DNA of 64,000 bases from Patescibacteria group bacterium (lineage in GTDB: Bacteria > Patescibacteriota > Minisyncoccia > Moranbacterales > UBA9337): NCBI GenBank assembly GCA_042569905.1, contig JBHPHA010000003.1, positions 2,471-66,470 on the forward strand, written 5' to 3'. This document shows, in pieces, positions 26,522-38,747 of this stretch. The notes under the pieces were generated by a model, which had not been told where the DNA came from, searched no databases, and saw only the letters and a list, made by a program, of their open reading frames with translations. Each line of letters opens with the position of its first letter. Position 1 is the first letter of the stretch. A program made the translations under genes and the position numbers.

Positions 26522-28615
26522 TTACTTACGACCTTTCTTGTTGATTTTCTTTAAAAGAGTATCAATACCTTTCTCTCTTCTCAGGTCCTGCATCGCTCCA
26601 TCATTAATCCCCGCATGGAGTACATGATGTTTATCAGCATAAATACAATCTGCACTTAAATTATCCCTAGCATATTCAGCCAAAGACATTATTTGAGTGC
26701 TGAATAAAACACTGACACCAGCATTGCTAAGAGCTGTTAGAAGATCGACTCCGAGTTTAAATCCGGAGGACTCTTGAGTCCCAAGTCCGATTTCATCAAT
26801 AACAAAGACTATATTTTTGCCTTCGTATTTTTGAGCCACCTCCAAGATGTTCTTCATCTTATCAAGGATTAATTGACTCGTTGACCCAGCGCCTCTCTCA
26901 ACAAATACCATTCCTAACGCCTTTTTAATATTAAGCCGAAAGGTTGTTCCAAAAACAGGCAATCCACTTTGAGCTAAAAAGACATTATCAGTAACAGAAA
27001 GACTACTTACCGTCTTCCCTCCTCCATGCCTACCAGTCAGGCATAGCATCTGACCATTTAAATCAGGGAGTCCTTTTATTGCTTTCACCTCTTCAATGTC
27101 ATCACGACCCAGCAAGTGAACTGGGTAAATCTCTCCAAAGCTGACCACGTGATGATGATCTCCATCAAGAATTTCTGGAAAGCAGAGATTGATTCCCAAT
27201 TCTTCCGACTTGCGCTTAATGCACAGTGCTAGAGTTGCAACTTCACGCAACTTATCCATGTGACTGGAAAAAAAATCTCTATGAAACTTAATTGCCTCAT
27301 GTGTTGGACTCAGCTCTTGACTTGCATAAAAATTTTCAAGAGAAAACCATTTATGCTCTTCATCAGTATATGGAGATGGGAATTTGTGTGAACTTAAGAA
27401 AAAATCAGGAAAATTCTCACTGATTTGATGCTCAACATTAGAAATCTGCATCCTCCTTCTGTGTTCAGAAAACTCACTTTGCAATACTCCGCGAGCTGCA
27501 CGAATGCTTTTCAGCATCTCAAGGCTGTATCCCGCATGTTCCTCAAAATAGAACTTGTCACCTTTGTCTACTGTTGACTTTACGCTAGGGTCAAATCCAA
27601 GAATTTTGAGAATAAGACCCTTATCTGAATATGAAAAATATACCCGCAATGACCCTCCAGAAAAGTAATTTGAGTCAAGCTTCAGTTTGTTAATCAATTT
27701 CACTAGAGAGCTAGCTATATCACGCTTCAAGCCATCAGTCATATTATTAATAACCATGTCCCGATAGGCTTTTTGCCGCTCTTTCTCATTTAAGTCATCG
27801 ATTGATTTCTTCTTATAGATACCAAATCCTACCCAATTCAGGATGTTCCATTTATTGTACACCCATGGCGGATATGGATGACGCCTAGCATCAGATAATG
27901 CAAATGAATGCATTTTATGTCCGTGGACATGAGTAGAAAGCTTACTTCGATTAGATTCCATTTCCACCGCTTCGACCCGATACTGATACTGATACTCTTC
28001 TACATCTGCGCAATCTGCATCTTCAGACTTAGTATCAACTTTCTCGTCCTTAGGATTATGAACCGCCACAGGATTAAGAAAAACATCCGCCGAAACCACT
28101 CCTTCTATTACCGCGATAGTCTCAACTCTTTCAGAGATAATGGCGGCCATCTCTTTTTCTTTCTCCTCCAAGGGTAAACTTGACTTTAGAATACTTACCA
28201 AATCGTTTAATCGCTGAGATTTACTTCCGGCACATGCCGAAATAAAATCACGCACGGTTTTCCAATAGGGATTATGATCTTGTATTGGGTCAAAAAAATT
28301 GAGAAACTTATTTTTTTCATCAGGAATTTGACTTGCAACACTCTTATAGATAACGTGCTGCATTGCCTCGGGATTTTCAATAAAAAAACGAACTAGGTCC
28401 TGACGACCCTTTATTTCGTCTTTGTCACAAATCCCAAATGTATCTCTAAGATTATGACTAGCAACACCAAGTCCGCTCAAGATGTCCTCTTCAGTGAAAT
28501 CACCCTTATTGATTATTTCCAACTTTTCGGATTCCTTAAGATCTTTATTCCACAATAAAACATCTGGATAATCCACACCAAAAAAACTGTTTTTTTTCAA
28601 AACTTTTTTCTTCAT
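26522..28615 (-). CDS. MutS-family ATPase-domain protein without a mismatch-binding or Smr domain
   Basis: C-terminal LTGRHGGGKT (Walker A), FVIDEIGLGTQESSG (Walker B/DEIGRGT-like) and FSTQ (ATH-like). The roughly 480-aa N-terminal region is unrecognised. Confidence 0.6.
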   Translation of the reverse strand: MKKKVLKKNSFFGVDYPDVLLWNKDLKESEKLEIINKGDFTEEDILSGLGVASHNLRDTFGICDKDEIKGRQDLVRFFIENPEAMQHVIYKSVASQIPDEKNKFLNFFDPIQDHNPYWKTVRDFISACAGSKSQRLNDLVSILKSSLPLEEKEKEMAAIISERVETIAVIEGVVSADVFLNPVAVHNPKDEKVDTKSEDADCADVEEYQYQYRVEAVEMESNRSKLSTHVHGHKMHSFALSDARRHPYPPWVYNKWNILNWVGFGIYKKKSIDDLNEKERQKAYRDMVINNMTDGLKRDIASSLVKLINKLKLDSNYFSGGSLRVYFSYSDKGLILKILGFDPSVKSTVDKGDKFYFEEHAGYSLEMLKSIRAARGVLQSEFSEHRRRMQISNVEHQISENFPDFFLSSHKFPSPYTDEEHKWFSLENFYASQELSPTHEAIKFHRDFFSSHMDKLREVATLALCIKRKSEELGINLCFPEILDGDHHHVVSFGEIYPVHLLGRDDIEEVKAIKGLPDLNGQMLCLTGRHGGGKTVSSLSVTDNVFLAQSGLPVFGTTFRLNIKKALGMVFVERGAGSTSQLILDKMKNILEVAQKYEGKNIVFVIDEIGLGTQESSGFKLGVDLLTALSNAGVSVLFSTQIMSLAEYARDNLSADCIYADKHHVLHAGINDGAMQDLRREKGIDTLLKKINKKGRK

Positions 28616-28781: not shown

Positions 28782-29849
28782 TTAAAAATATTTATTATAT
28801 AAGCTCTCCTTGATTTCAGGATTTTTCACAATAATGCGATTAACTTTTTCCCGCAATTCGCTACCTTCGGGAAAGGCAAATGCATAGTTGTGCTTGTGAA
28901 ATACTTTATTAGAAACAACTAATCCAGAATCTGGATTATCCTTAATATAGCTCAGAAGTCCCGGTAAGTCATATATTACAACATCAATATCATCATCCTT
29001 GAGGCTTTTATATGCTGCTTCGATAGTTGGGAATACTTTTGGCCTAATTCCTGCTTCCACCAAGGTGTCACTAGAAAAACCTACTTTTGTGCCGACCCTC
29101 AGCTCTTTGAGATCAGAATAGCTAGAAATATTGAATTTGACATTATCTGCAGAGAGATCTGAAGATATTTGCCCAATTGACAGGCCACAAAGACTTAATC
29201 CAATAGGAATTATAAAGATAGCTGTAAATTGTCTCCCTAAAAATGTCTTTGGAATAACCCCTCCATATCCAACAGTAGATCCAGTAACTTCAATGAACCA
29301 GATTGAATCAAACATAGCCAACCAGATGCCGAGTCCGTGCAAAACACCACCTCTTCTTCTTTCAAGAAAAAATATAACGCTCGCTGAAAAAAGAAGAAAT
29401 ATCAAAAATGTTTTAAATGTTTTTATTGTCCTCTTACTGAAACTAGGGAGGATGTTATCATTCTCGCCCATCATACTTCCCAATCCTGCCTCAAATGTCG
29501 GATGACTAAAATCAACTCGCTCCTCGCGATCACCAGCAACTGAAATTCCGCCTATCGCCACATCGCATTCTTTGCGCTCAAGACAAGTAATTTTCTCCTC
29601 AACACTGCTTAGTATCTTATATGAGACATTAGAAATTCCCATCTTCTCAGCTGCCTCATTCCAATACTCAACTGAATAACCTCCAGCTACAAAAGCTACT
29701 TCTCCATCCTTGACATAAATCTTGACAAACGGATAGTAGTGACTAACACCCACAACAATAGCTTCATCGTTATTATCTTGCTGAGCAAGCGCTATCATCG
29801 GACTAGCTAAGAATAAAATTATCAGTAGAACTTTAACATAAAATTTCAT
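28782..29849 (-). CDS. GluR0-type ligand-gated K+ channel (solute-binding domain interrupted by a pore module)
   Basis: Signal peptide. SBP type-3 lobe (DVAIGGISVAGDREERVDFSHP), M1 helix, selectivity filter TGSTVGYGG, M2 helix, then the second SBP lobe. Confidence 0.7.
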   Translation of the reverse strand: MKFYVKVLLIILFLASPMIALAQQDNNDEAIVVGVSHYYPFVKIYVKDGEVAFVAGGYSVEYWNEAAEKMGISNVSYKILSSVEEKITCLERKECDVAIGGISVAGDREERVDFSHPTFEAGLGSMMGENDNILPSFSKRTIKTFKTFLIFLLFSASVIFFLERRRGGVLHGLGIWLAMFDSIWFIEVTGSTVGYGGVIPKTFLGRQFTAIFIIPIGLSLCGLSIGQISSDLSADNVKFNISSYSDLKELRVGTKVGFSSDTLVEAGIRPKVFPTIEAAYKSLKDDDIDVVIYDLPGLLSYIKDNPDSGLVVSNKVFHKHNYAFAFPEGSELREKVNRIIVKNPEIKESLYNKYF

Positions 29850-30586: not shown

Positions 30587-31675
30587 CTATTCAATAAATA
30601 ATCCAGTGTCTGAATCCCAATCCTTATCACAGTCTAGTCCAGTAGCCTCTAGGATTGTATCCCAACCGACAATGGCAACAGACTTGTCATCATCAACTGC
30701 AGCAAATAAACCTTCTGAGTACCCCCTAAGACTGTCTTGGATTGAAGCAATTCCATCCGTATTTCCAACACCCTCTATTCTTAGAGTTCCCAGGTGCCTC
30801 CACTTTATTCTGTCAAAAAATTCAAAATCAGTTTCACTTCCTCTCTGGTCGGCCACAATAATAAATCCTCTTCCCTTATCTTTATCATTGCTATCTAAGC
30901 ACTTATACATCGTAATCCCTTCTTCATCTCTATCAAAAACATCTTTTCTCCCAAAATAGTTCTTTCCTTTATATTTATATTTTCTGCCATCTGGTTTATA
31001 AGCATACACTCCGGGCTTTTTTGCATCTCCTCCATCCTCCTCAGGAATATAAACAGCTTTATGGTAACTATCCACCATAATTGTTTCCATACTCCTATTT
31101 GATGGATCGATTGTTTCTTCTAAGTCACCAGTTTCAGCGTCAAAAGCATATACATATTCATTATCCGTTACATAAACCCACACTTGATCCCGTCCTCTTC
31201 TCTTCCAATGATAGATATCAAGACTATTTTCTCCCTCTCCAATTATTCCACTTCCGAATCTTCTCAATTCTTCTTTTTCAGGTAATGAATATACGATAAC
31301 TTCTCTATTTATTGAATCAGTTACAAAAAGTTCATCATTTTTCTGATCAACAGCCACACCATTTGGGCGACCATCAATTCTGATTGAACTCCTCTCATTT
31401 CCTTTAAAAGGATACCTCCAAACTTCTACTCTTTCATTCCCCTTAGCAGTCACAAACATCAAGGTCTTGTCGCGATTCTTATTCTCCCAAAAAGCAACTG
31501 AATCAATATTCCTACCCCTTCCGTCAAGCTTAAAATCCGGTGCTACTGTAACCATATCAAACTCCTTGAATCGCTTAGCTTCTGAGAAATATACTCCAAA
31601 AAATTGATATCCAAACAAGCTCAAAAAGACTCCAGAAATTAAAGTAATTAGAATCGCTTTTTTATATTTTTTCAT
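30587..31675 (-). CDS. secreted beta-propeller protein, phytase-like (BPP-type)
   Basis: Signal/anchor helix. DSVAFWEN..., NGVAVD, LFVTD, YIPEEDGG and TDGIAS segments resemble beta-propeller phytase blocks. Confidence 0.45.
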   Translation of the reverse strand: MKKYKKAILITLISGVFLSLFGYQFFGVYFSEAKRFKEFDMVTVAPDFKLDGRGRNIDSVAFWENKNRDKTLMFVTAKGNERVEVWRYPFKGNERSSIRIDGRPNGVAVDQKNDELFVTDSINREVIVYSLPEKEELRRFGSGIIGEGENSLDIYHWKRRGRDQVWVYVTDNEYVYAFDAETGDLEETIDPSNRSMETIMVDSYHKAVYIPEEDGGDAKKPGVYAYKPDGRKYKYKGKNYFGRKDVFDRDEEGITMYKCLDSNDKDKGRGFIIVADQRGSETDFEFFDRIKWRHLGTLRIEGVGNTDGIASIQDSLRGYSEGLFAAVDDDKSVAIVGWDTILEATGLDCDKDWDSDTGLFIE

Positions 31676-31888
31676 ATTTATTTTTTCATTTCATTTATTA
31701 CAAGTTTATAAATAAAAACCCAAAAACTATTCGCTAGTTTTATGGGCATACAAAAGATATTCAATTATTCAGGATAGTAACGATCTCTAAGATTCCAACC
31801 AAATTTACCTCTAACATTACTATACCATAAAAATACGTTTACTCAAAAACGCGCCTTATCAGTATCAGTAGGCTTATCCTAAAAAATT

Positions 31889-31921
31889 AAAAATGACCTG
31901 CTGCTATTAGCAACAGGCCGC
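31889..31921 (-). terminator. rho-independent terminator ending the cassette array
   Basis: GGCCTGTTGC / GCAGCAGGTC stem followed by a T run on the minus strand. Confidence 0.6.
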
Positions 31922-31939
31922 ACTTCATCTCGAATAGCC

Positions 31940-32335
31940 CTATGGATCAACTACTTCAAGTATCTCGGTTATTTTAACCCTATCTGATTCATTTGGAAGA
32001 TTATCGATCAAGAATATTTGTTCTTTCCCCACATCATTCCTAAAGATTATATACCGATAAAATGAAATACTTTTTGGCAAGTATTTTTTCACTTGATAAG
32101 CCCTACTATCTGAACATCTGTCCAGGTATTCAGATCTCTTATCAATGCAAAATACAGCTTCCACGGGGATTTCAAACTCCCTCCAATTTCTAGGATTATT
32201 CATGTCTTGCATTGTTTTCATCACTTCATCCATGTTGCCGACTTCATCAATGTACATAAGCTTTTCCATCTTCTGAGCACAGCCCCAGAAACAGCAACAA
32301 AAAACAATCAACAAGAAAACTCCTACCTTTTTCAT
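31940..32335 (-). CDS. putative lipoprotein (131 aa); distal cassette
   Basis: N-terminus MKKVGVFLLIVFCCCFWGC looks like a signal peptide with a lipobox. Confidence 0.55.
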   Translation of the reverse strand: MKKVGVFLLIVFCCCFWGCAQKMEKLMYIDEVGNMDEVMKTMQDMNNPRNWREFEIPVEAVFCIDKRSEYLDRCSDSRAYQVKKYLPKSISFYRYIIFRNDVGKEQIFLIDNLPNESDRVKITEILEVVDP

Positions 32336-32418
32336 AAACCCTCCTCTTTTTAGTCTTCAATAAAATTGATAAACAAGTTCTAAATTCACAACAAACTGCG
32401 TCAAATTAATGACCATGT

Positions 32419-32636
32419 ATCCTACCACATCTCCACACTAAGTCAACTCTCAGCTAGAATTCTCCCCGCCCTTACTAAAAAATAATCCATAGTAACTATT
32501 TTTCTTTCGAAATTAAATATGTATTTAAATACCTATTTAATTCTAAAAATTCACAAAACAAAAAAGCACGTATCATTAGCACACCTCTTTGATATCTTGC
32601 ACGGACTTGTAGAGGAAGTCAGAACTGTTTTTGAAA
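32419..32636 (-). repeat. tRNA-Trp-associated repeat, copy A1 (distal and most degenerate, with an internal insertion)
   Basis: TTGCACGGACTTGTAGAGGAAGTCAGAACTGTTTTTGAA (32597..32636) matches copies A2-A4. The promoter part GTCAACTCTCAGCTAGAATTCTCC matches A4. TTGACT, 16 nt, TAGGAT promoter. Confidence 0.7.
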
Positions 32637-32666
32637 ATAATCTAAATTTAAATAACTATTAGTCCT

Positions 32667-33311
32667 TTACTTTAAGTTTGTTATTTTATTAAATATCTCC
32701 TCTGCTATAATCCTGTGAGATTCTGGATCCAAGTGAACCCCATCTTTCAAGCTTGGCTCAACTAGCTCTTGCAAATTAACAAATTCAGCACCATATTTCC
32801 CGGCTACCAATTGAAGTTCTTTTGGTAGCTGCTTGATTTTTTTAGTTGAATTACCCAATCTCCATTCTATTGCACATTCAATTGTGTCGTTTACTTCTGA
32901 AGGGCAAATCAAAATTATTTTAGGTACCCCATCCTCACCATTATAAGCATTTTCTTGAACAATTTTCACCAATTCCTCGCATCTACTCGCTACATCTTTA
33001 GCGGTTAACGATTTATCCTTAAAATCGTTAGTTCCTAAGTTAATAATTACAATATCAAAAGGACTATGAGATTTTATACAAGGAGCTAAATATGTTTTAC
33101 CGTTTTTTTCGAGATTATTTAAATCATTAAGCATAGCAAATCTGCCGCCTAGTCCTTCCTCGATTATCTCATAATTATTTCCTAGCAAGTTCTGCAATAA
33201 ACCTGTCCATCTTACATTAACAGGATAACGCTTAAATGTTTCTGGATTCACTCCATAAGTATTAGAATCTCCATAACATAAAACTCTGATTGCATTTGGA
33301 TTTGTATTCAT
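32667..33311 (-). CDS. SGNH/GDSL-family hydrolase
   Basis: Block I VLCYGDSNTYG, block III GTND and block V DGVHL. Confidence 0.8.
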   Translation of the reverse strand: MNTNPNAIRVLCYGDSNTYGVNPETFKRYPVNVRWTGLLQNLLGNNYEIIEEGLGGRFAMLNDLNNLEKNGKTYLAPCIKSHSPFDIVIINLGTNDFKDKSLTAKDVASRCEELVKIVQENAYNGEDGVPKIILICPSEVNDTIECAIEWRLGNSTKKIKQLPKELQLVAGKYGAEFVNLQELVEPSLKDGVHLDPESHRIIAEEIFNKITNLK

Positions 33312-33344
33312 AATTCTATAAATTTAAATTTGTTTTATGTCTTA

Positions 33345-33455
33345 ATCTTATCACAAAAAGCCCTAATTACACGAGCCCCTATACAAAAACAAGGCTTTAT
33401 AAAGCCTTGTTTTTAACTTGGCACGGGCTCGTAGAGGAAGTTAGAACTATTTTTG
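33345..33455 (-). repeat. tRNA-Trp-associated repeat, copy A2
   Basis: Perfect 30-nt palindromic terminator at 33385..33414. AACTTGGCACGGGCTCGTAGAGGAAGTTAGAACT. Extended -10 TGATAAGAT. Confidence 0.8.
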
Positions 33456-33507
33456 TGGAAAATAAAAAATGAGAGGATGATTTTCCTCTCATTTAAATTT
33501 TTTATAT

Positions 33508-34293
33508 TCATACACTAATTGCAGGATTTTTCAAAGCTTCTCTTAAATACCCTGCGTATTCCACATCCTCTGATCCATAGCAGGCGCTCACTTCAACCTC
33601 ATCTGCGGATAAATCTGCACCCCCACGCCAATCAGTAATATATGACCAAGAATCTTGAGTTATAATCCTTATAAGATTTCTAGTCTTCTTCTTTGGATCA
33701 TTTACTAATTGATCTGAAGTAGGATCAACTAAAATAATACCTTTTTGAGCACCCATTCTCAATACAAAAGGAATTAGCACATATGCATGATCATACGTAC
33801 TAGTACACGCCTTGACTGCAGAAGCTACCCCCGCCTCCCAAAATGCGATTAACAAATTTCTTGCGGAAATACCACAACAACCATTAGGAAAGCTACCTCT
33901 CATAGCGTTATATTTCCCAAGTATATAATGACAATAGGATATTTGATACATCTCTGAAATACTCATTGCCATATCCTCTATGTCATCATACAGACTTGCT
34001 GTTGGTTTTGTTATTTCTCCAAAAAACTCACTGCTAACACCCTTAGCATTTCCTATTGAGCCAATATTTGAATACCTTCTTAATAAATTATTACAAGCGG
34101 CAAGAAACTCCTCACCCTCTCCTAAGTCAATTTCCGATAATTTTGTTCCAAAAAAGTTATCCATTGCAAGTTCAAGAGATCTAACATCAATACGCAAGGG
34201 ATTTTTTTTAAAAAAAGAATCAGGATTATTAGACACAGGGAAAGCGGGGAAATTATTTCTACGGTGAATAACTTTGAATTGCGACATCCTCAC
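33508..34293 (-). CDS. hypothetical protein with a possible Cys-His-Asp (papain/transglutaminase-like) triad
   Basis: NGCCGISARNL ... YDHAYVLIP ... LVDPTSD, in the order expected for such folds. This is a weak call. Confidence 0.5.
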   Translation of the reverse strand: MRMSQFKVIHRRNNFPAFPVSNNPDSFFKKNPLRIDVRSLELAMDNFFGTKLSEIDLGEGEEFLAACNNLLRRYSNIGSIGNAKGVSSEFFGEITKPTASLYDDIEDMAMSISEMYQISYCHYILGKYNAMRGSFPNGCCGISARNLLIAFWEAGVASAVKACTSTYDHAYVLIPFVLRMGAQKGIILVDPTSDQLVNDPKKKTRNLIRIITQDSWSYITDWRGGADLSADEVEVSACYGSEDVEYAGYLREALKNPAISV

Positions 34294-34361
34294 ACCTCTC
34301 TATAATTGTTGATTGTTATGTACCATTATAAATGTTAAATTAACTACCATATTGAGAGTTA

Positions 34362-34485
34362 ATCCTACCCCATCCCGCCCGAAAAATCAACCTCTCAATC
34401 CGAATTGTCCCCTCTCCTATACAAAAAAGGCTCTATAAAGCCTTGTTTTTAATTTGCACGGGCTCGTAGAGGAAGTTAGAACTAT
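34362..34485 (-). repeat. tRNA-Trp-associated repeat, copy A3
   Basis: AATTTGCACGGG exact at 34451..34462. Terminator hairpin at 34421..34450. TTGATT, 17 nt, TAGGAT promoter. Confidence 0.8.
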
Positions 34486-34609
34486 TTTAATGAAACAACA
34501 AATAAGAAATTTGTAATAAAAAAAGCAAGTAATAAAAAAGTCTATTACTTGCTCAGTATTGATATGTACATTCTACACGGTATTTTTATCTCTTTGTAGC
34601 TATTTCTAT

Positions 34610-35359
34610 CTAACTACCCCCCCCCATAGCAATATTCTCCCAAATTTTTTGACACTCAACAATCTTGCGATACTTTCCCGTTGAAAACAATAAGAGCAGC
34701 TGGGAATCAAATTCTTTTTCACCCATATTTTTACACAGGCCTTTTGAAAAACTACTTTCTTCATAACCCCAATCCCAAACAGACTGACAATTACGCAAAT
34801 AGGCTGATCTTTCAAGATCCCAAATTAATTCACAAGCTTTTTGAGAAAGCTCCTTTCCTTGACCCCTCATAGCCCGAAATGACTCTTTCTGAGTAGCAAT
34901 TGCCCATTTCTTATAATGATCATACTCGTGATCAATCACAAGGAAAAAATCAAGTATCTGCTTCTCCGTCTCAATACACAATAATCGATGTGCATTAAGA
35001 ATCATCACAGGGTATACCTCGCTATCATCAAGAAAACGTCCTTCAATAGGCTTAACTTTTTTAGCTGGCCACTCTTCAAAAGCACCACCACTCAGCCGAT
35101 CAAATACAAGGATTATTTCTCCTTTATCAAACAATCCATTGAGATTATCTCGTATCTTTCTATTTGGATGATAACTTATTATACTCCTCAACACCTCCCT
35201 AGCTCTCAATTCAATGTCATCATCCGAAGCAGAACATTGCAGACCAATCTCCTTCACAATCAAATCGATATCAGGTCTACCAGACACTTGAGAAAGCGCT
35301 ACGGCACACCAACTCATACAAAAAACACTAACCACTAAGAAAGCTATTGCTCTTCCCAT
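34610..35359 (-). CDS. secreted protein with an HExxH motif (possible zinc metallopeptidase)
   Basis: Signal peptide MGRAIAFLVVSVFCMSWCAVALS. HEYDH motif. Own promoter (TTGACG, 17 nt, TAGTAT) and GAGGAGG Shine-Dalgarno sequence. Confidence 0.5.
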   Translation of the reverse strand: MGRAIAFLVVSVFCMSWCAVALSQVSGRPDIDLIVKEIGLQCSASDDDIELRAREVLRSIISYHPNRKIRDNLNGLFDKGEIILVFDRLSGGAFEEWPAKKVKPIEGRFLDDSEVYPVMILNAHRLLCIETEKQILDFFLVIDHEYDHYKKWAIATQKESFRAMRGQGKELSQKACELIWDLERSAYLRNCQSVWDWGYEESSFSKGLCKNMGEKEFDSQLLLLFSTGKYRKIVECQKIWENIAMGGGS

Positions 35360-35503
35360 AAAACTTCCTCCTCACTCTTTGCTTTTAATGGACAATAAAA
35401 CCCCTGTCTAACTCAAAGAACAACAACCAATACTACTACCTTTTCTGATTTTCGTCAACTTGTCAAATCAAAAAAATACAATTACCCACCCATTTTTACA
35501 TTC

Positions 35504-35537
35504 AAAAAAAACGGCTCAGCATTTGCTTCACCGTTTT
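35504..35537 (-). terminator. rho-independent terminator
   Basis: AACGGTGAAGCA / TGCTGAGCCGTT stem followed by a T run on the minus strand. Confidence 0.6.
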
Positions 35538-35544
35538 AAAACAA

Positions 35545-35877
35545 TCATCCAGCAAAAAGATTATCAAGATGACTCTCGCAATTTGCAACCCTTCGCACAA
35601 AAACACGAACTCCTGGTCTATATACAAACAGTCGATTCGCTTCCATCGCTTTTTTTAGCAATTTCTCTGGATTGTTCATTAAAACATTTCCCTCGATGTC
35701 CTCTGTTGCAATAATTCTTCTACCCTCCCTCTTAACAGTGAACTTCGGGCCCAAACACAACTCATTCTCCTTGCAAGGGATAACCTCAAAATAGACCTCC
35801 TCTTCAACAATCTCTCGCATTTGAACAATACAACACCTTCGAACCTCTGCCATAGCACTATCAAATGAATCCGTCAT
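35545..35877 (-). CDS. hypothetical protein (110 aa)
   Basis: The start is moved to the ATG at 35877, preceded by GAGGGAG. The track ORF extends to 35955. Confidence 0.5.
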   Translation of the reverse strand: MTDSFDSAMAEVRRCCIVQMREIVEEEVYFEVIPCKENELCLGPKFTVKREGRRIIATEDIEGNVLMNNPEKLLKKAMEANRLFVYRPGVRVFVRRVANCESHLDNLFAG

Positions 35878-35945
35878 TTTTTCACTCCCTCTATTTAATC
35901 GGTTTAATGATAGCCATCCACTTCTTGTTAAGAATACTTTCCAAA

Positions 35946-36078
35946 ATTCTATCACAATTTACCAAAAGAGTCAACCTCTCAGATCTAATTCTCTCCATTC
36001 CTATACAAAAACAAGGCCCTGCAAGGCCTTGTTTTTAATTTGCACGGGATCGTAGATGAAGTTAAAACTGTTTTTGAA
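35946..36078 (-). repeat. tRNA-Trp-associated repeat, copy A4
   Basis: AATTTGCACGGG exact at 36037..36048. Perfect hairpin at 36007..36036. TTGACT (35969..35974), 17 nt, TAGAAT (35946..35951). Confidence 0.8.
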
Positions 36079-36121
36079 GGAAATAGTGACATTTAAAAAT
36101 CAAACTAAAACTATTCAATTC

Positions 36122-37057
36122 TTATTCGAATGCATCCTTTAGCCTATTAGATAACTCTTCTGGCCATTCCTGATCATTGGAAGATGCATCAAGTATTTTT
36201 CTTACAAATTCTTCTCTTAATTTTATTTTTTCACTTTGAATTCTACTCTTTAATTCCTGTGGCAACGATTCTCCATTTATAAAATTTTTATCCCGTTCTC
36301 CAATTGAAACATATTTATTTATTTCTTCTTCAGACATTGCCTGATATGCCGATAAAAAACCTAGATAAGTCTTATCAAAACCAATACCGATTGTTTCATC
36401 TATATAATGAGGCCAGACTGAATTCTCTTCTGATTCGCTATTTAACCACTTAACATTTCTTTCAGAAAGCATCTGATCAAAAATAAAAAAATTTAAACCT
36501 TCGTGATAATCTTTTAATTTCTCAGAACGAACTTTAATTATTTTACTCAAATTCCACTCCTCATCTTTCCCTTCCAAAGAAAGTAATTTATACAAAGCTC
36601 TAGCTGTTCTCCCATTTCCATCCTTGAATGGGTGAAGATAAATAATGGCATTAAAAATTAATCTTGAAACAATCTTCTTTTTATTCTCGTCATCACCTAG
36701 AGATATCTCCTTAGCCCTATTAAATGCTTCTTCCATAATAATCACTCTCATTTCTTTTCTTGGAGGAACAATCTCAGCTGAGCCCTCTGTCATCATAAAA
36801 CTACTTACAATTTTTGACTCACTATCAAAAGAATCCCTATTTGCAATTGGGATTTGCTTGATGATTCCATTAATTCTCTCTAAATGAGCCATAAACTGTG
36901 AATAGTCTACCTGACCCAATATATCCATAAAAAAATCAGGATTTTCGAGATCCTTAACGTCAATAATTTTCTCCAAAAACTTCTCCAGCTTCTCAGACCC
37001 TACTACTCTCTCTCGTTCCTCCTCTTTTTGCTGCTTTATATTATCTTCAAAATTCAT
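36122..37057 (-). CDS. Fic-domain protein (putative AMPylase or related nucleotidyl/phosphoryl transferase)
   Basis: Canonical Fic motif HPFKDGNGRTAR. Confidence 0.8.
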   Translation of the reverse strand: MNFEDNIKQQKEEERERVVGSEKLEKFLEKIIDVKDLENPDFFMDILGQVDYSQFMAHLERINGIIKQIPIANRDSFDSESKIVSSFMMTEGSAEIVPPRKEMRVIIMEEAFNRAKEISLGDDENKKKIVSRLIFNAIIYLHPFKDGNGRTARALYKLLSLEGKDEEWNLSKIIKVRSEKLKDYHEGLNFFIFDQMLSERNVKWLNSESEENSVWPHYIDETIGIGFDKTYLGFLSAYQAMSEEEINKYVSIGERDKNFINGESLPQELKSRIQSEKIKLREEFVRKILDASSNDQEWPEELSNRLKDAFE

Positions 37058-37117
37058 AATTAATTTAAATATCGCATTATCCTTATCTGTATAATATCAC
37101 AATAAAATGTTAGAACC

Positions 37118-37156
37118 AAAAAAAGGCTTTAGTTAATTCATAACTAAGCCTCTTTA
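37118..37156 (-). terminator. terminator directly after tRNA-Trp
   Basis: AGGCTTAGTTA / TAACTAAAGCCT stem followed by a T run on the minus strand, then an extended -10 TGATATTAT promoter for the Fic gene. Confidence 0.6.
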
Positions 37157-37175
37157 TTGGTTCGATTACAATTTG

Positions 37176-37246
37176 CACGGGTGGAGAGAATCGAACTCCC
37201 GCCAGAAGTTTTGGAGACTCCTATACTACCACTATACGACACCCGC
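37176..37246 (-). tRNA. tRNA-Trp (anticodon CCA)
   Basis: Cloverleaf folded by hand. Acceptor GCGGGTG/CACCCGT, anticodon stem GGAGT/ACTTC, loop CTCCAAA, T arm GGGAG-TTCGATT-CTCTC. No encoded CCA. Confidence 0.85.
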
Positions 37247-37354
37247 AAATATTCTATTTTCAATTCACAATAGTTACATTATATCAAACTTTTTACTATT
37301 TTAAAATAGACCTCCTTAACTTTAAAAAATTAATGGAGGCCTGTTTTACAAGTT

Positions 37355-37519
37355 CTATTTCTTCATTTCCTTATGCAAAGTATGCTTTCTACATTTTTTG
37401 CAAAATTTATTCAATTCTAGCTTTTCTTTAATCTTCTTCTTGTTTCTACTAGACCAGTAGTTAATATTGTTACAGTCAACACATTTTAACTTTACTAGGT
37501 TTTCTTTTCTTGACGCCAT
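37355..37519 (-). CDS. rpmG: 50S ribosomal protein L33 (54 aa); below the ORF-track cutoff
   Basis: MASRKENLVKLKCVDCNNINYWSSRNKKKIKEKLELNKFCKKCRKHTLHKEMKK carries the CxxC...CxxC L33 pattern. Confidence 0.85.
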   Translation of the reverse strand: MASRKENLVKLKCVDCNNINYWSSRNKKKIKEKLELNKFCKKCRKHTLHKEMKK

Positions 37520-37567
37520 ATTGTTATAAAAAAATTATTCTGTATATTACTTAAAATTAAAAAAATG

Positions 37568-37640
37568 AGCCGTTGCGCGGAATTGAACCGCGGACCTCAT
37601 CCTTACCATGGATGCGCTCTACCAACTGAGCTACAACGGC
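37568..37640 (-). tRNA. tRNA-Thr (anticodon GGT)
   Basis: GCCGTTG acceptor, anticodon stem CATCC/GGATG, loop ATGGTAA, T arm CGCGG-TTCAATT-CCGCG. Confidence 0.85.
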
Positions 37641-37683
37641 AATCCACGATTTTCCGACACGTCACATAATAAATCACTGTATG

Positions 37684-37766
37684 TGGGCAGGGACGGATTT
37701 GAACCGTCGAAGTCCGAAGACGTCTGATTTACAGTCAGATGCATTTGACCACTCTGCCACCTACCC
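37684..37766 (-). tRNA. tRNA-Tyr (anticodon GTA), long variable arm
   Basis: GGGTAGG acceptor, anticodon stem TCTGA/TCAGA, loop CTGTAAA, variable arm GTC-TTCG-GAC, T arm GACGG-TTCAAAT-CCGTC. Confidence 0.85.
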
Positions 37767-37797
37767 ATGCTACTATTAAGTTTTCTGAAAAAACTTG

Positions 37798-37870
37798 AGC
37801 CGCTTAGCGGACTTGAACCGTTAACCTACTGTTTACAAAACAGTTGCTCTACCAATTGAGCTAAAGCGGC
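37798..37870 (-). tRNA. tRNA-Thr (anticodon TGT)
   Basis: GCCGCTT acceptor, anticodon stem ACTGT/ACAGT, loop TTTGTAA, T loop TTCAAGT. Confidence 0.8.
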
Positions 37871-37907
37871 GTATGATTGTGACTAACTTCACAATCATAA
37901 TTATATA

Positions 37908-38747
37908 CTATCTCTTATTTTTAATCAACCCCTCTATACTATCAACACTACTCTTCGCTTTTTCATTTAAAGGATTGAGTTTTAGGACATACTTATAGCA
38001 AGAAAGCGCATCAATATCATTCCCCTGCTGTCTGTAATAATCCCCTAATCTTTCATAGGCTTCCACATCTCGAGGGTCTTGAGCGATTCTTTCTACCAAA
38101 ATTTCTTCGAGTTGCTCCTTTTTAATCTCTTCTTTTTTTTGCATTTGAAGCTCTCTTCTTCTTGCCTCAGGATAAACAACTGAGTTACTTATCATCGGAG
38201 ATTTCCTCTTTTCATCTTTTAATAACACACCCTTCTTTACTGCCTCTTTTGATCCAGAAGAAGCCCTAGGCCTTAGATTAGTACTCTTTGCACCTCTCTT
38301 GAAATCTAAACCTTTCCATCTTCTTTTTGCTACGCTAGTATCATTAACTTCAGCCTTCAAGTTCTCGACAGGTTTGACTTCATCCTCTGCTTCCTCCAAT
38401 TCAGGTTTCACCGCAATTTCACTTTCATCACTAAAATCAAAACTACTTTCCAATACATGGTCTTTCTTATCTTGAGATTGCCGCTTGTATTTTCTAATAG
38501 ACTTTATCCAGCTGTCCAGTAAATTATTAAATTTTGATAATACTGCCTTAAAACGATGAACTCCTTTCTCAACTAAAGGTAGTAGCTTGTTTTTTAACTT
38601 AATACGCTCGCCAATATCCTCAGAATGTTCTTTTCGAACAACTGTAGAACTTCCTAATTCAAATGATTTACGTGACAATACAAATAATATTGATGCCACA
38701 CTGACAATCATTATTATTGGCGGTAGGATAAAATACAAATATGGCAT
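37908..38747 (-). CDS. membrane-anchored TPR-repeat protein
   Basis: N-terminal transmembrane helix. C-terminal TPR-like AYERLGDYYRQQGNDIDALSCYKYVLKLNP. Confidence 0.55.
   Translation of the reverse strand: MPYLYFILPPIIMIVSVASILFVLSRKSFELGSSTVVRKEHSEDIGERIKLKNKLLPLVEKGVHRFKAVLSKFNNLLDSWIKSIRKYKRQSQDKKDHVLESSFDFSDESEIAVKPELEEAEDEVKPVENLKAEVNDTSVAKRRWKGLDFKRGAKSTNLRPRASSGSKEAVKKGVLLKDEKRKSPMISNSVVYPEARRRELQMQKKEEIKKEQLEEILVERIAQDPRDVEAYERLGDYYRQQGNDIDALSCYKYVLKLNPLNEKAKSSVDSIEGLIKNKR

Follow-up and report, generated by a model that had tools for sequence, protein, structure and literature searches.

Chromosomal integrons, such as the arrays of Vibrio cholerae with its VCRs, are built from IntI, attI and attC. 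The attC site stands at each cassette end and carries R''/L''-L'/R' boxes (RYYYAAC...GTTRRRY) and extrahelical bases. The locus described here belongs to an uncultured Patescibacteria (CPR) bacterium with a Moranbacteria-like genome and lies within the window, that is, the whole stretch of 64 kb that was analyzed. On the minus strand, the tRNA-Trp gene is followed by miniature cassettes, four or perhaps five in number, each 0.8-1.6 kb long. As in chromosomal integron arrays, the cassettes are about 1 kb long, mostly hold a single gene, lie in one orientation, have no recombinase of their own and carry the same family of junction repeat, and there is one fixed platform site, to which the newest cassette would be the closest. 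The cargo is likewise a miscellany of accessory genes and genes of unknown function, and unrelated ORFs have standardised flanks. In contrast to integrons, the 3' end of tRNA-Trp serves as the platform in place of attI, and IntI, which adjoins an integron array and is usually divergent, is absent throughout the 64 kb. The junction is also different: each cassette's end carries a non-palindromic arm and core of together about 32 nt, whereas attC is an imperfect palindrome of 57-141 nt, and the hairpin here is a perfect terminator between an A-tract and a T-tract. Moreover, a promoter-like leader and terminators accompany every cassette and may take the place of Pc, from which the generally promoterless integron cassettes are expressed.

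A CIME is bounded by attL and attR, lacks genes for integration and transfer, originates from the decay of an ICE or IME, and is mobilised by the integrase of a related element. Serial integration at tRNA genes, in which partial-tRNA direct repeats are formed and older elements are pushed inward, has been described for the tycheposon islands of Prochlorococcus (10.1101/2020.12.28.424599) and for CIME accretion (PMC5704250). The present locus resembles both in that the site is a tRNA 3' end, the tRNA is kept intact, direct repeats of an att-like core lie between the units, and newcomers would push older units inward. It shares with CIMEs units without an integrase that lie between att-like sites, and with tycheposon islands a streamlined genome poor in classical mobile elements. 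However, its units hold only one or two genes in 0.8-1.6 kb, with no integrase or replication module or remnant of these, and each unit comes with a conserved arm of non-tRNA sequence and with standardised modules for promoter and terminator. The direct repeat of the tRNA 3' end expected of a tRNA-targeting element is present but very short, the last 5-6 nt and the trailer being repeated four times, as compared to the roughly 40 nt of tRNA repeated in these two kinds of element, and an element-encoded integrase was found neither in the cassettes nor in the window. The att-like boundaries and the absence of an integrase are as in CIMEs, but the regular layout of about 1 kb does not support an origin by decay.

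A dif-like site comprises 28 nt, with two inverted half-sites of about 11 nt and a spacer of 6-8 nt, and lies at the chromosomal dif or terminus. IMEXs and dif modules (XerC/D) use a host-encoded tyrosine recombinase and stack in tandem with site repeats of about 28-34 nt (PMC5357621, PMC6744903). Our cassettes are likewise small and recombinase-less, occupy one chromosomal site, and form tandem units split by repeats of a site in this size range. In contrast, their site is the end of tRNA-Trp and not dif; by inspection, the arm and core show neither a recognisable XerC/XerD half-site dyad around a 6-8-bp spacer nor the obvious dyad symmetry usual for simple tyrosine-recombinase core sites; and the locus has a long, uniform negative GC skew with no skew switch of the kind found at a terminus. 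REP and MITE repeats occur in many copies over unrelated intergenic regions and have terminal inverted repeats or palindromic units, a dispersion not seen within the 64-kb window. Taken comprehensively, the array may best be read as working in an integron-like manner or by accretion of the CIME/tycheposon type, and it would belong neither to the integrons, as it has no adjacent IntI and no attC sites, nor to the Xer-dependent elements.

Anatomy of the cassettes and their junctions

The features are listed below from the tRNA outward. L042 is an 84% relative.

37176..37246 (lower boundary 37175/6), minus: tRNA-Trp (cca); ARAGORN, Rfam tRNA 56.9 bits
37171-37181, minus: first core copy, proposed attachment site; last 6 nt of the tRNA, CCCGTG (37176-37181), and trailer CAAAT (37171-37175)
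36049..37170, minus: cassette A, nearest the tRNA; absent from L042
37113-37163, minus: long terminator hairpin of A (inverted-repeat search)
37091-37101, minus: extended -10-like TGTGATATTAT of A (consensus)
36122-37057, minus: Fic/Doc-family ORF of A (Pfam Fic, 4.6e-07)
36049-36076, minus: arm of A, CAAAAACAGTTTTAACTTCATCTACGAT
36038..36048, minus: core copy R1 (CCCGTGCAAAT), junction of A and B
34463..36037, minus: cassette B, two ORFs; absent from L042
36007-36036, minus: hairpin of B
35969-35996, minus: GTATAGG and type II leader of B; TTGACT-17-TAGAAT with TG at 35974-35946
35545-35877, minus: 110-aa ORF of B, followed by a terminator at 35504-35537
35430-35458, minus: second promoter-like site of B (consensus)
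34610-35359, minus: secreted 249-aa ORF of B, followed by a terminator at 34518-34554
34463-34490, minus: arm of B
34452..34462, minus: core copy R2 (CCCGTGCAAAT), junction of B and C
33428..34451, minus: cassette C; absent from L042
34423-34450, minus: hairpin of C, with type II leader at 34385-34412
33508-34287, minus: 259-aa ORF of C (ATG start, in agreement with the NCBI protein)
33464-33494, minus: terminator of C
33428-33455, minus: arm of C
33416..33427, minus: core copy R3 (CCCGTGCCAAGT), junction of C and D; matches the real tRNA-Trp end of L042
32606..33415, minus: cassette D, orthologue of the first cassette of L042
33385-33414, minus: hairpin of D, with type I leader GGGGCTCGTGTAATTAG at 33363-33379
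33345-33355, minus: extended -10-like TGTGATAAGAT of D (consensus)
32667-33311, minus: GDSL/SGNH hydrolase ORF of D (Pfam Lipase_GDSL_2, 1.5e-14)
32606-32633, minus: arm of D
32594..32605, minus: core copy R4 (TCCGTGCAAGAT), after D; the oldest junction
31889..32593, minus: distal unit, possible fifth cassette; no arm or core behind it
32560-32590, minus: terminator of the distal unit, followed by an AT-rich spacer
32419-32467, minus: type II leader/promoter of the distal unit
31940-32335, minus: lipoprotein ORF of the distal unit, followed by a terminator at 31889-31919
30587..31846, minus: membrane-anchored beta-propeller (phytase/NHL-like) protein with its own promoter; first conserved gene beyond the array

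The two ORFs of cassette B had no match in Pfam, NCBIfam or PDB, and family and PDB searches with the ORF of cassette C gave none. The GC3 of the cassettes agrees with that of the host, and no phage similarity was found.

Four copies of the junction follow the tRNA-Trp on the minus strand, at about 36.0, 34.4, 33.4 and 32.6 kb. Each begins with an arm of about 25 nt (AAAAyAGTTCTAACTTCCTCTACGAG), which is followed by the 7-nt core CCGTGCA, the terminator hairpin and the promoter-like leader. The core consists of the last 5 bases of tRNA-Trp and 2 bases of the trailer, and it was unchanged in six of six junctions and in every close-relative tRNA-Trp examined (window, L042, L043/L044, L146 and L067). 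The overlap region of tyrosine recombinases has a size of 7 bp. A preliminary description of this DNA had reported a 12-mer as an exact repeat, with two near-exact variants farther out; we recovered exact copies of the 11/12-mer CCCGTGCAAAT(T) at 37171-37181, 36038-36048 and 34452-34462, and the variants at 33416-33427 (CCCGTGCCAAGT) and 32594-32605 (TCCGTGCAAGAT). The repeats are far from random: in self-BLAST, R2 and R3 showed 93% identity over 76 nt (E 7e-22), R1 and R2 87% (E 2e-12), and R1 and R3 86% (E 1e-10), and R4 was 89% identical to the other repeats over 35 nt. The 32-nt pattern of arm and core gave 3 matches, compared to 0 expected from shuffles. All repeat copies fall within one 3.6-kb stretch, and none was found in the 64-kb window outside 32.5-36.1 kb, which speaks for the proposed link to tRNA-Trp as against a generic scattered element.

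The segment of about 30 nt upstream of the core had been taken for a diverged T arm. This is not supported: its alignment to tRNA-Trp 3' halves was no better than that of shuffles (p 0.11-0.95), and Rfam gave no tRNA-like match in the arm even at E<=1. The copied tRNA sequence is limited to 6 nt plus the trailer. The outermost copy had been described as the most decayed; more aptly, R4 retains arm and core and differs from the other copies in its right flank. By alignment, this right flank is orthologous to the junction flanks of L042 and of another genome, L151; the R4 core variant and a flank starting with GATAwC also occur in L151, and a related version occurs in L042.

The junction hairpin is a perfect stem of 13-15 bp with a loop of 0-4 nt between an A-run and a T-run. 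The terminators claimed at 33385-33414 and 36007-36036 proved to be 100% and 93% complementary, respectively, and terminator-like sites are enriched in number (10 found, 3.1 expected). By alignment, the hairpin is not kept at the junctions of R4, L042 and L151. As for the homologous promoters that had been described, the homology of the leaders was confirmed (35969-35996, 34385-34412 and 32441-32467), but their identity as promoters was not, resting on the consensus, for which 27 sites were found as compared to 28.5 expected. A promoter-like site with a strong consensus, preceded by a terminator, is present in each cassette, although such sites are not enriched over shuffles. We regard each cassette as a predicted self-contained expression unit, in which a terminator that would insulate it from the preceding unit is followed by the promoter-like leader and by one or two ORFs, mostly with a further terminator behind them.

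Cassette variation among related genomes

The suggestion that cassette content varies between a fixed tRNA-Trp and a fixed distal flank was examined by alignment to relatives. In these, the order L31-S2-EF-Ts-PSP1-TPR-tRNAs-L33-tRNA-Trp on one side and GT4-DUF4012 on the other is conserved, and the interval between them differs. The propeller gene is common to the window, L042 and L151 and forms the distal fixed flank of the array. Instead of an invariant gene order, presence, absence and replacement of cassettes were found among these three genomes.

In L042, the GDSL cassette lies directly at the tRNA-Trp. By blastn, window 38198..37174 corresponds to L042 11382..12444, and window 33427..32585 to L042 12437..13279. 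Thus, the two genomes differ by 3.75 kb, that is, by three additional cassettes in the window, and the difference is bounded by breakpoints inside the core with an 8-nt overlap, CCCGTGCA. Either an insertion in the window lineage or a deletion in L042 fits this comparison of two genomes. Behind its GDSL gene, L042 has arm and core as the sole copy in 20.8 kb. In L151, which comes from an independent sample, an HSP70/YegD-like gene is followed by GGTTCTAACTTCCTCTACGAG and TCCGTGCAAGATA, directly adjoining, and then by the conserved propeller gene. By alignment, the hairpin and leader of cassette D, behind R3, equal the sequence that natively follows the 3' end of tRNA-Trp in L042 and L043, as would be expected for a displaced attB flank. 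The arm is carried by only three genomes (window, L042 and L151), and scans of JGI metagenomes and of IMG/VR for it gave no match, so that the arm family seems to be rare or restricted to a lineage. The contig of L146 ends 12 nt past tRNA-Trp and that of L151 begins inside a cassette leader, breaks that fit population heterogeneity at this locus.

Cassette D and its counterpart in L042 are 86.7-88% identical in nucleotide sequence. The third-position identity of the GDSL gene between the window and L042 was 0.835, compared to 0.623 for the pooled flanking genes S2, EF-Ts, PSP1, propeller and GT4 (Fisher p=1.9e-9), which indicates that the sharing of this cassette is more recent than the split of the genomes. 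However, the synonymous identity of L33, which adjoins tRNA-Trp, is also high (0.82, n=50), so that a local tract of homologous recombination could account for some of the GDSL signal. At the place of the distal unit, the window has the lipoprotein, L042 an M50 peptidase and L151 nothing. There is no arm or core on the distal side of this lipoprotein/M50 replacement, and another process therefore acts at the locus too.

Proposed mechanism and rival explanations

The tRNA-Trp locus is best read as a small island of accessory genes anchored on the 3' end of the tRNA. We give slightly better than even chances to the view that cassettes without an integrase accumulated there by site-specific recombination, with the recombinase encoded elsewhere. 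From the sequences, we infer that recombination at the array would be site-specific rather than homologous. A circular cassette, arranged as arm, core and hairpin-leader, would recombine with the tRNA end through the 7-bp core present on both. The tRNA would stay intact because the insertion changes the trailer alone; the hairpin and leader of the incoming cassette would come to adjoin the tRNA, and the former trailer and all behind it would be shifted one step, to a place after the newcomer's arm and core. Serial insertion would then give an array with the newest cassette closest to the tRNA, and recombination from core to core could also remove cassettes by deletion or excision. These reactions would require a site-specific recombinase, most likely of the tyrosine type, whose gene would lie at another place in the genome or be carried by a helper element. 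As had been noted before, the 64 kb hold no integrase or transposase: no ORF of at least 110 aa matched Phage_integrase or another recombinase or transposase in Pfam, tblastn with a Patescibacteria tyrosine recombinase as the query gave nothing at E<=10, and viral and metagenome scans were negative for a helper element. The cassette array of the preliminary description is upheld by the fixed flanks, the variable content, the core breakpoints and the third genome with the same arm and core; serial insertion at the tRNA end is retained as a probable mechanism, and membership of the integron family is given up, as IntI and an attC-type site are lacking.

An array that changes without a dedicated recombinase, through common homologous recombination or unequal crossing-over of terminator-promoter repeats of about 80-130 nt and through uptake of DNA from related strains, appears rather unlikely to us. 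Arm and core would then be merely part of a shared terminator-promoter module. The repeats, at 76-78 nt and 86-93% identity, are enough for RecA-type or short-homology recombination, and several unrelated ORFs share leaders and terminators: the 249-aa gene and the M50 gene of L042 have common 5' leaders and 3' terminators, the type I leader precedes the GDSL gene and also a 208-aa gene in L043, and the type II leader stands before four unrelated genes. Thus, ORFs have been exchanged within conserved non-coding frames, and the lipoprotein/M50 replacement without a distal core points the same way. However, such recombination leaves unexplained how the same arm and core came to stand behind unrelated genes in the first place, why the invariant 7 nt are the tRNA end while neighbouring trailer bases vary, and why otherwise unalignable cassettes agree in arm and core at 94-97% over 27-33 nt when core genes are only about 77-85% identical. 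Besides, the breakpoint between the window and L042 shares only 8 nt between the tRNA junction and R3, a length that does not suffice for homologous recombination at the tRNA side. Decay of larger integrase-bearing elements (prophage, IME/ICE or tycheposon-like) serially integrated into tRNA-Trp, as in CIME formation or accretion, is quite improbable, although integration of this kind is well documented, as cited above, a more distant relative (L147) has a displaced tRNA-Trp 3' half beside its tRNA-Trp, and the closest non-orthologous GDSL homologue (67%) adjoins a tyrosine recombinase in L148. Five independent cassettes in three genomes all measure 0.8-1.6 kb with the same order of hairpin, promoter, ORF, terminator and arm, and the cassettes contain no integrase fragment (tblastn E<=10, Pfam), a regularity that random decay would not be expected to yield. 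The 6 nt of copied tRNA, the host-like GC3 and the absence of phage similarity also speak against it.

A generic intergenic repeat, either REP/MITE-like or a standard module of terminator and insulator, that is spread over the genome and unlinked to tRNA-Trp seems very improbable to us. The 64 kb examined belong to a genome of roughly 1 Mb, and a terminator hairpin is a feature that the repeat has in common with many REP-type elements. Nevertheless, the window copies are confined to the array, L042 and L151 each have a single copy in the syntenic position, the core is identical to the end of the tRNA, and hairpin plus leader are the native tRNA trailer of relatives; genes and repeats are also present or absent jointly between genomes, unlike the insertion of a MITE between pre-existing genes. 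An assembly artefact, in which a metagenome assembler chained single cassettes of coexisting strains in tandem through the shared repeat, is suggested by the origin of the sequence as a MAG contig and by the breaks of relatives' contigs at this locus, and it is extremely improbable. Exact matches reach at most 33 nt among the repeat regions and at most 12 nt between these and the tRNA junction, lengths below typical final assembly k-mers. Each junction joins a unique left arm variant to a unique right hairpin variant, which needs real reads spanning it, and arm and core are contig-internal in L042 and L151 independently.

We therefore return to site-specific accumulation at the tRNA end as the favored reading. 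Because the cassettes vary among related genomes and no integrase is encoded nearby, the array looks like a small, possibly new route by which these bacteria with their tiny genomes swap accessory genes.

The tRNA-Trp repeat and its cassettes

The window genome has a GC content of about 35%; the best-named homologues of its PSP1/RicT protein belong to Moranbacteria, and the MAG is close to that group. From 18 to 64 kb of the window nearly every gene is on the minus strand and the GC skew is uniformly negative. On this strand the genes of S2, EF-Ts, PSP1, a TPR protein, tRNA-Thr, tRNA-Tyr, tRNA-Thr, L33 and tRNA-Trp (37176-37246) stand upstream of the array, and a GT4 glycosyltransferase gene and then a DUF4012 protein gene lie beyond the array region.

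A repeat downstream of tRNA-Trp had been claimed in the preliminary description. Self-BLAST and exact copies of an 11-mer indicate that this repeat is real and far beyond chance. The 11-mer CCCGTGCAAAT, which is the last 6 nt of tRNA-Trp plus 5 nt of trailer, occurs exactly at 37171-37181, 36038-36048 and 34452-34462, with variants at 33416-33427 and 32594-32605. The junction copies R1, R2 and R3 (at about 36.0, 34.4 and 33.4 kb) were mutually 86-93% identical over 76-78 nt (E 1e-10 to 7e-22), and R4 (at about 32.6 kb) matched the other copies at 89% over 35 nt. A conserved segment of about 25 nt, the arm ((C/T)AAAA(A/T)yAGTTCTAACTTCCTCTACGAG), precedes the core in all four downstream copies, giving the arm-core sequence GTTCTAACTTCCTCTACGAGYCCGTGCA; no copy of the arm was found outside the array in the 64-kb window. 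Seven nucleotides, CCGTGCA, were strictly invariant in all the junctions compared (six, from three genomes) and in tRNA-Trp of the close relatives examined. Seven base pairs is the size of the overlap region of tyrosine recombinases. In R1 to R3 the core is followed by the hairpin A5-CAAGGC...GCCTTG-T5 and GTATAGG. The units are as follows.

Cassettes and adjoining units of the array
36049-37170, minus strand: cassette A; long hairpin terminator, TGTGATATTAT, Fic/Doc-family ORF, arm
34463-36037, minus strand: cassette B; hairpin, type II leader (GAGAATTAGATCTGAGAGGTTGACT-17-TAGAAT), 110-aa ORF with terminator, second promoter-like site, secreted 249-aa ORF with terminator, arm
33428-34451, minus strand: cassette C; hairpin, type II leader, 259-aa ORF with terminator, arm
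32606-33415, minus strand: cassette D; hairpin, type I leader (GGGGCTCGTGTAATTAG...TGTGATAAGAT), GDSL/SGNH hydrolase, arm
31889-32593, minus strand: unit after core R4; different terminator, AT-rich spacer, type II promoter, 131-aa lipoprotein, terminator, with neither arm nor core behind
Next beyond the 131-aa lipoprotein unit: gene of a membrane-anchored beta-propeller (phytase/NHL-like)

In NCBI the cassette proteins have the entries MFC1644594-99 (locus tags ACFL08_010xx), and most cargo proteins gave no match to any family or in PDB. Each cassette had been credited with its own terminator and promoter. Terminator-like sites were enriched in the window (10 vs 3.1 expected). Promoter-like sites were not (27 vs 28.5 expected), and the cassette promoters are therefore consensus-level predictions only. 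The arm had also been taken for a diverged T arm, and this could not be upheld: aligned with the 3' halves of three tRNA-Trp genes, the arm scored like shuffled arms (p 0.11-0.95), and Rfam, even at E<=1, gave only the four genuine tRNAs of the window.

No dif-like or loxP-like dyad was seen within arm and core. As a repeated protein-binding motif, GTTCTAAC was not significant (3 copies in the window vs 1.9 expected). An attC-like role of the hairpin was ruled out by its perfect stem, its A/T tracts and the lack of conservation at the oldest junction. At the junction of the tRNA and cassette A (37163-37199), the T-loop sequence GTTCGATT and its perfect inverted copy in the trailer, AATCGAAC, flank the core with 21-nt spacing, and R3 has a weaker analogue of the pair, GTTCTAAC ... 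GTTAAAAAC. The pair around the core may be a half-site arrangement, or it may be due to chance.

The locus in related genomes

Contigs of relatives were found via PSP1 homologues, except that L151 (Logan SRR19019140, 73% identity) was found via the propeller protein. PSP1 identity to the window was 84% for L042 (GCA_042569265.1) and 71% for L043/L044. Both flanks were syntenic in these loci, and the interval from tRNA-Trp to the GT4 gene differed in content and in length (window 12.7 kb, L042 7.3 kb, L043 3.7 kb). The content thus varies between fixed flanks, in support of the earlier idea that small cassettes were added at the tRNA-Trp 3' end.

BLASTN aligned window 38198..37174 with L042 11382..12444, and window 33427..32585 with L042 12437..13279; the two alignments overlap in CCCGTGCA alone. 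In L042, therefore, the genuine tRNA-Trp is directly adjoined by the GDSL cassette, and the window has three more cassettes (3.75 kb). A phage origin of these three was rejected, as blastn gave no match among 50,697 phage records; compositional foreignness was likewise rejected, the GC and GC3 of the cassettes being inside the host range, and a defence island was rejected because PADLOC gave only weak Fic and HSP70 matches. In L042 arm and core are also present behind the GDSL gene (AAAATAGTTCTAACTTTCTCTATGAA joined to CCCCGTGCAG). By alignment, R3 of the window has on its right a hairpin and type I leader that form the native trailer of tRNA-Trp in L042 and L043, and as judged from sequence this right flank is what would be expected of a displaced attB flank. 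In L151 an HSP70/YegD-like gene is followed by GGTTCTAACTTCCTCTACGAG joined to TCCGTGCAAGATA, a terminator and the propeller gene; the arm therefore recurs on a different cassette, where it is joined to the old core variant seen in R4.

Arm and core were 94-97% identical over 27-33 nt between cassettes otherwise without similarity, and the core genes of the array-bearing genomes shared only about 77-85% nucleotide identity. Between the window and L042, third-position identity at identical amino acids was 0.835 (n=194) for the GDSL cassette and 0.623 pooled over S2, EF-Ts, PSP1, propeller and GT4 (Fisher p=1.9e-9). The cassette thus looks, by this measure, to have been shared more recently than the genomes diverged. 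The value for L33 was also high (0.82, n=50), so that a local recombination tract may account for part of the GDSL signal.

The contig of L146, a 73% relative, stops 12 nt past tRNA-Trp (L146 7019-7102), and that of L151 starts within a cassette leader (L151 1-150). These breaks suggest repeats or strain heterogeneity at the tRNA-Trp locus in other samples. Contigs of the close relatives L146, L152 and L066/L067 stop before or at tRNA-Trp. In L147 (12401-12534), a 60% relative, tRNA-Trp is intact and differs in its acceptor stem; about 20 nt past this gene, a window-type tRNA-Trp is represented by a displaced 3' half (…GGGGGTCCGATTCCCTCCACCCGTGCA), and fragments of a D-Ala-D-Ala ligase gene come next. 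This displaced half points to a probable past recombination at tRNA-Trp, and together with the contig breaks it hints that the locus is a recombination hotspot.

Two further genes in the variable interval of the window are missing from the L042/L043 locus: that of a 697-aa protein with a weak MutS domain V match (26522-28615) and that of a solute-binding domain fused to a potassium-channel pore (GluR0-like; 28782-29849). Upstream of the L31-S2 block, L042 1-4514 carries Bro-N, OLD-family TOPRIM/AAA nuclease and DUF6602 genes, defence- or phage-derived in appearance; the window has none of them at the corresponding place, which makes this a second variable spot.

Non-coding sequence was also shared around unrelated ORFs. 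In cassette B, the gene of the secreted 249-aa protein shares homology with an M50 peptidase gene of L042 in its 5' leader (window 35360-35458, L042 13300-13414; TTGAC..., with TGTTGTTCTTTGA exact) and in its 3' terminator (window 34518-34554, L042 14462-14520; 18 nt exact, E 0.001). The two proteins are unrelated (BLASTP E 2.3), and thus unrelated ORFs occupy one non-coding frame. One hairpin and type I leader, whose homology reaches the start codon, stands before GDSL in the window (33345-33415) and L042 (12444-12550) and before an unrelated 208-aa membrane protein in L043 (12548-12650). Behind the 208-aa gene, L043 13280-13420 is a GC-richer, possibly structured non-coding stretch with no Rfam match at gathering thresholds. 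Four unrelated genes have the type II leader (GAGAATT.GATCTGAGAGGTTGAC) in front of them (window 35969-35996, 34385-34412 and 32441-32467; L151 25-70).

Origin of the array

The reported absence of integrase and transposase from the 64 kb held: Pfam on all window ORFs of at least 110 aa gave no integrase, resolvase or transposase, and tblastn agreed. Among non-orthologous homologues of the cassette GDSL hydrolase, the closest (67%) is on a 2-kb contig (L148 330-1946), where a 303-aa Xer-like tyrosine recombinase lies 66 nt upstream of it. Arm and core were not present on that contig, and tblastn (E<=10) with this Patescibacteria recombinase gave no match in the window or related loci. The arm is known from three genomes only. 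Scanning GTDB-representative genomes with CTTCMTCTACRAKYCCGTGC gave 41 single chance matches in high-GC genomes, none relevant, the pattern being too short. IMG/VR gave 20 chance matches to the arm, none followed by the core, and JGI metagenomes gave none to arm plus core. A metagenome scan from the PSP1 alignment returned mostly Firmicutes, with two short contigs as the only Patescibacteria. When the tRNA-Trp 3' end was sought in IMG/VR as a phage attP, the 59 matches were tRNA-Trp genes of phages or hosts and a tRNA-like 3' end of a gut phage at 52% GC, none linked to the clade of the array.

On balance we favour site-specific recombination, acting repeatedly and catalysed in trans, as the process that built the array. 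Cassettes in circular form (arm, core, hairpin, leader and ORF in this order) would recombine with the core at the end of tRNA-Trp, and the recombinase would act from elsewhere. Such recombination would explain why the breakpoints are exact and the tRNA is intact, why the native trailer is displaced at R3, why unrelated cassettes bear a conserved arm, why the 7-bp core is invariant and of tyrosine-recombinase overlap size, why integrases are lacking, and why genes and repeats co-vary between genomes. The chemistry and the enzyme are inferred, as are the circular form and the polarity (gain or loss).

Homologous recombination alone among repeated modules, which we consider unlikely, is favoured by the swapping of ORFs in shared frames, but it explains neither the origin and conservation of arm and core nor the 8-nt breakpoint at the tRNA. 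The regular layout of about 1 kb and the lack of any integrase remnant make it improbable that larger integrase-bearing elements decayed to this state. A repeat dispersed throughout the genome is very improbable, as it was not seen in about 90 kb examined across the three array-bearing genomes. Chaining of cassettes by the assembler is hardly credible, because no exact stretch longer than 33 nt is shared and internal copies of arm and core occur in three independent assemblies.

Relation to known systems

Functionally, the array resembles an integron in its single-gene cassettes, its one platform site with the newest cassette presumably nearest to it, its cassettes without recombinase, and its standardised flanks, as in VCRs. 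It differs in what defines an integron, having neither IntI nor attC. Units accumulate at a tRNA as in integrase-less CIME accretion (PMC5704250) and in tycheposon islands (10.1101/2020.12.28.424599). Those units, however, carry or once carried integrases, and their repeats are partial tRNAs of about 40 nt (PMC5704250, 10.1101/2020.12.28.424599); the array differs in both respects. As in IMEX/dif modules (PMC5357621), a recombinase would be used in trans, but the array lies at a tRNA and not at dif, without a dif-like dyad or skew switch. Our literature search for integron-like or tRNA-anchored cassette systems in Patescibacteria gave nothing relevant.

Tentatively, and with considerable doubt, we consider that the locus may be a previously undescribed integron-like gene-capture platform of CPR/Patescibacteria, in which the tRNA-Trp 3' end would be the fixed attachment site and accessory genes would circulate in self-expressing cassettes of about 1 kb, each with a conserved terminal recombination site of about 32 nt. 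An enzyme unrelated to IntI would insert and excise them in trans. If so, the leaders, terminators and arms common to unrelated ORFs would reflect a dedicated process of cassette building or ORF swapping. Such homologous promoter and terminator frames hint at a way in which cassettes arise, a question still open even in integrons. The 32-nt site with its 7-bp core offers a concrete target for finding the partner recombinase.

Patescibacteria have genomes of about 1 Mb and an episymbiotic lifestyle, and few mobile elements have been recognised in them. The cargo of the array comprises a Fic-family protein, a secreted protein, a lipoprotein and an SGNH hydrolase; the relatives add an HSP70-like protein and an M50 protease. 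The array would be a functional parallel of integrons made from different parts. How Patescibacteria gain and exchange accessory genes is poorly understood, and a tRNA-anchored, integrase-less array of mini-cassettes would give them a compact route.
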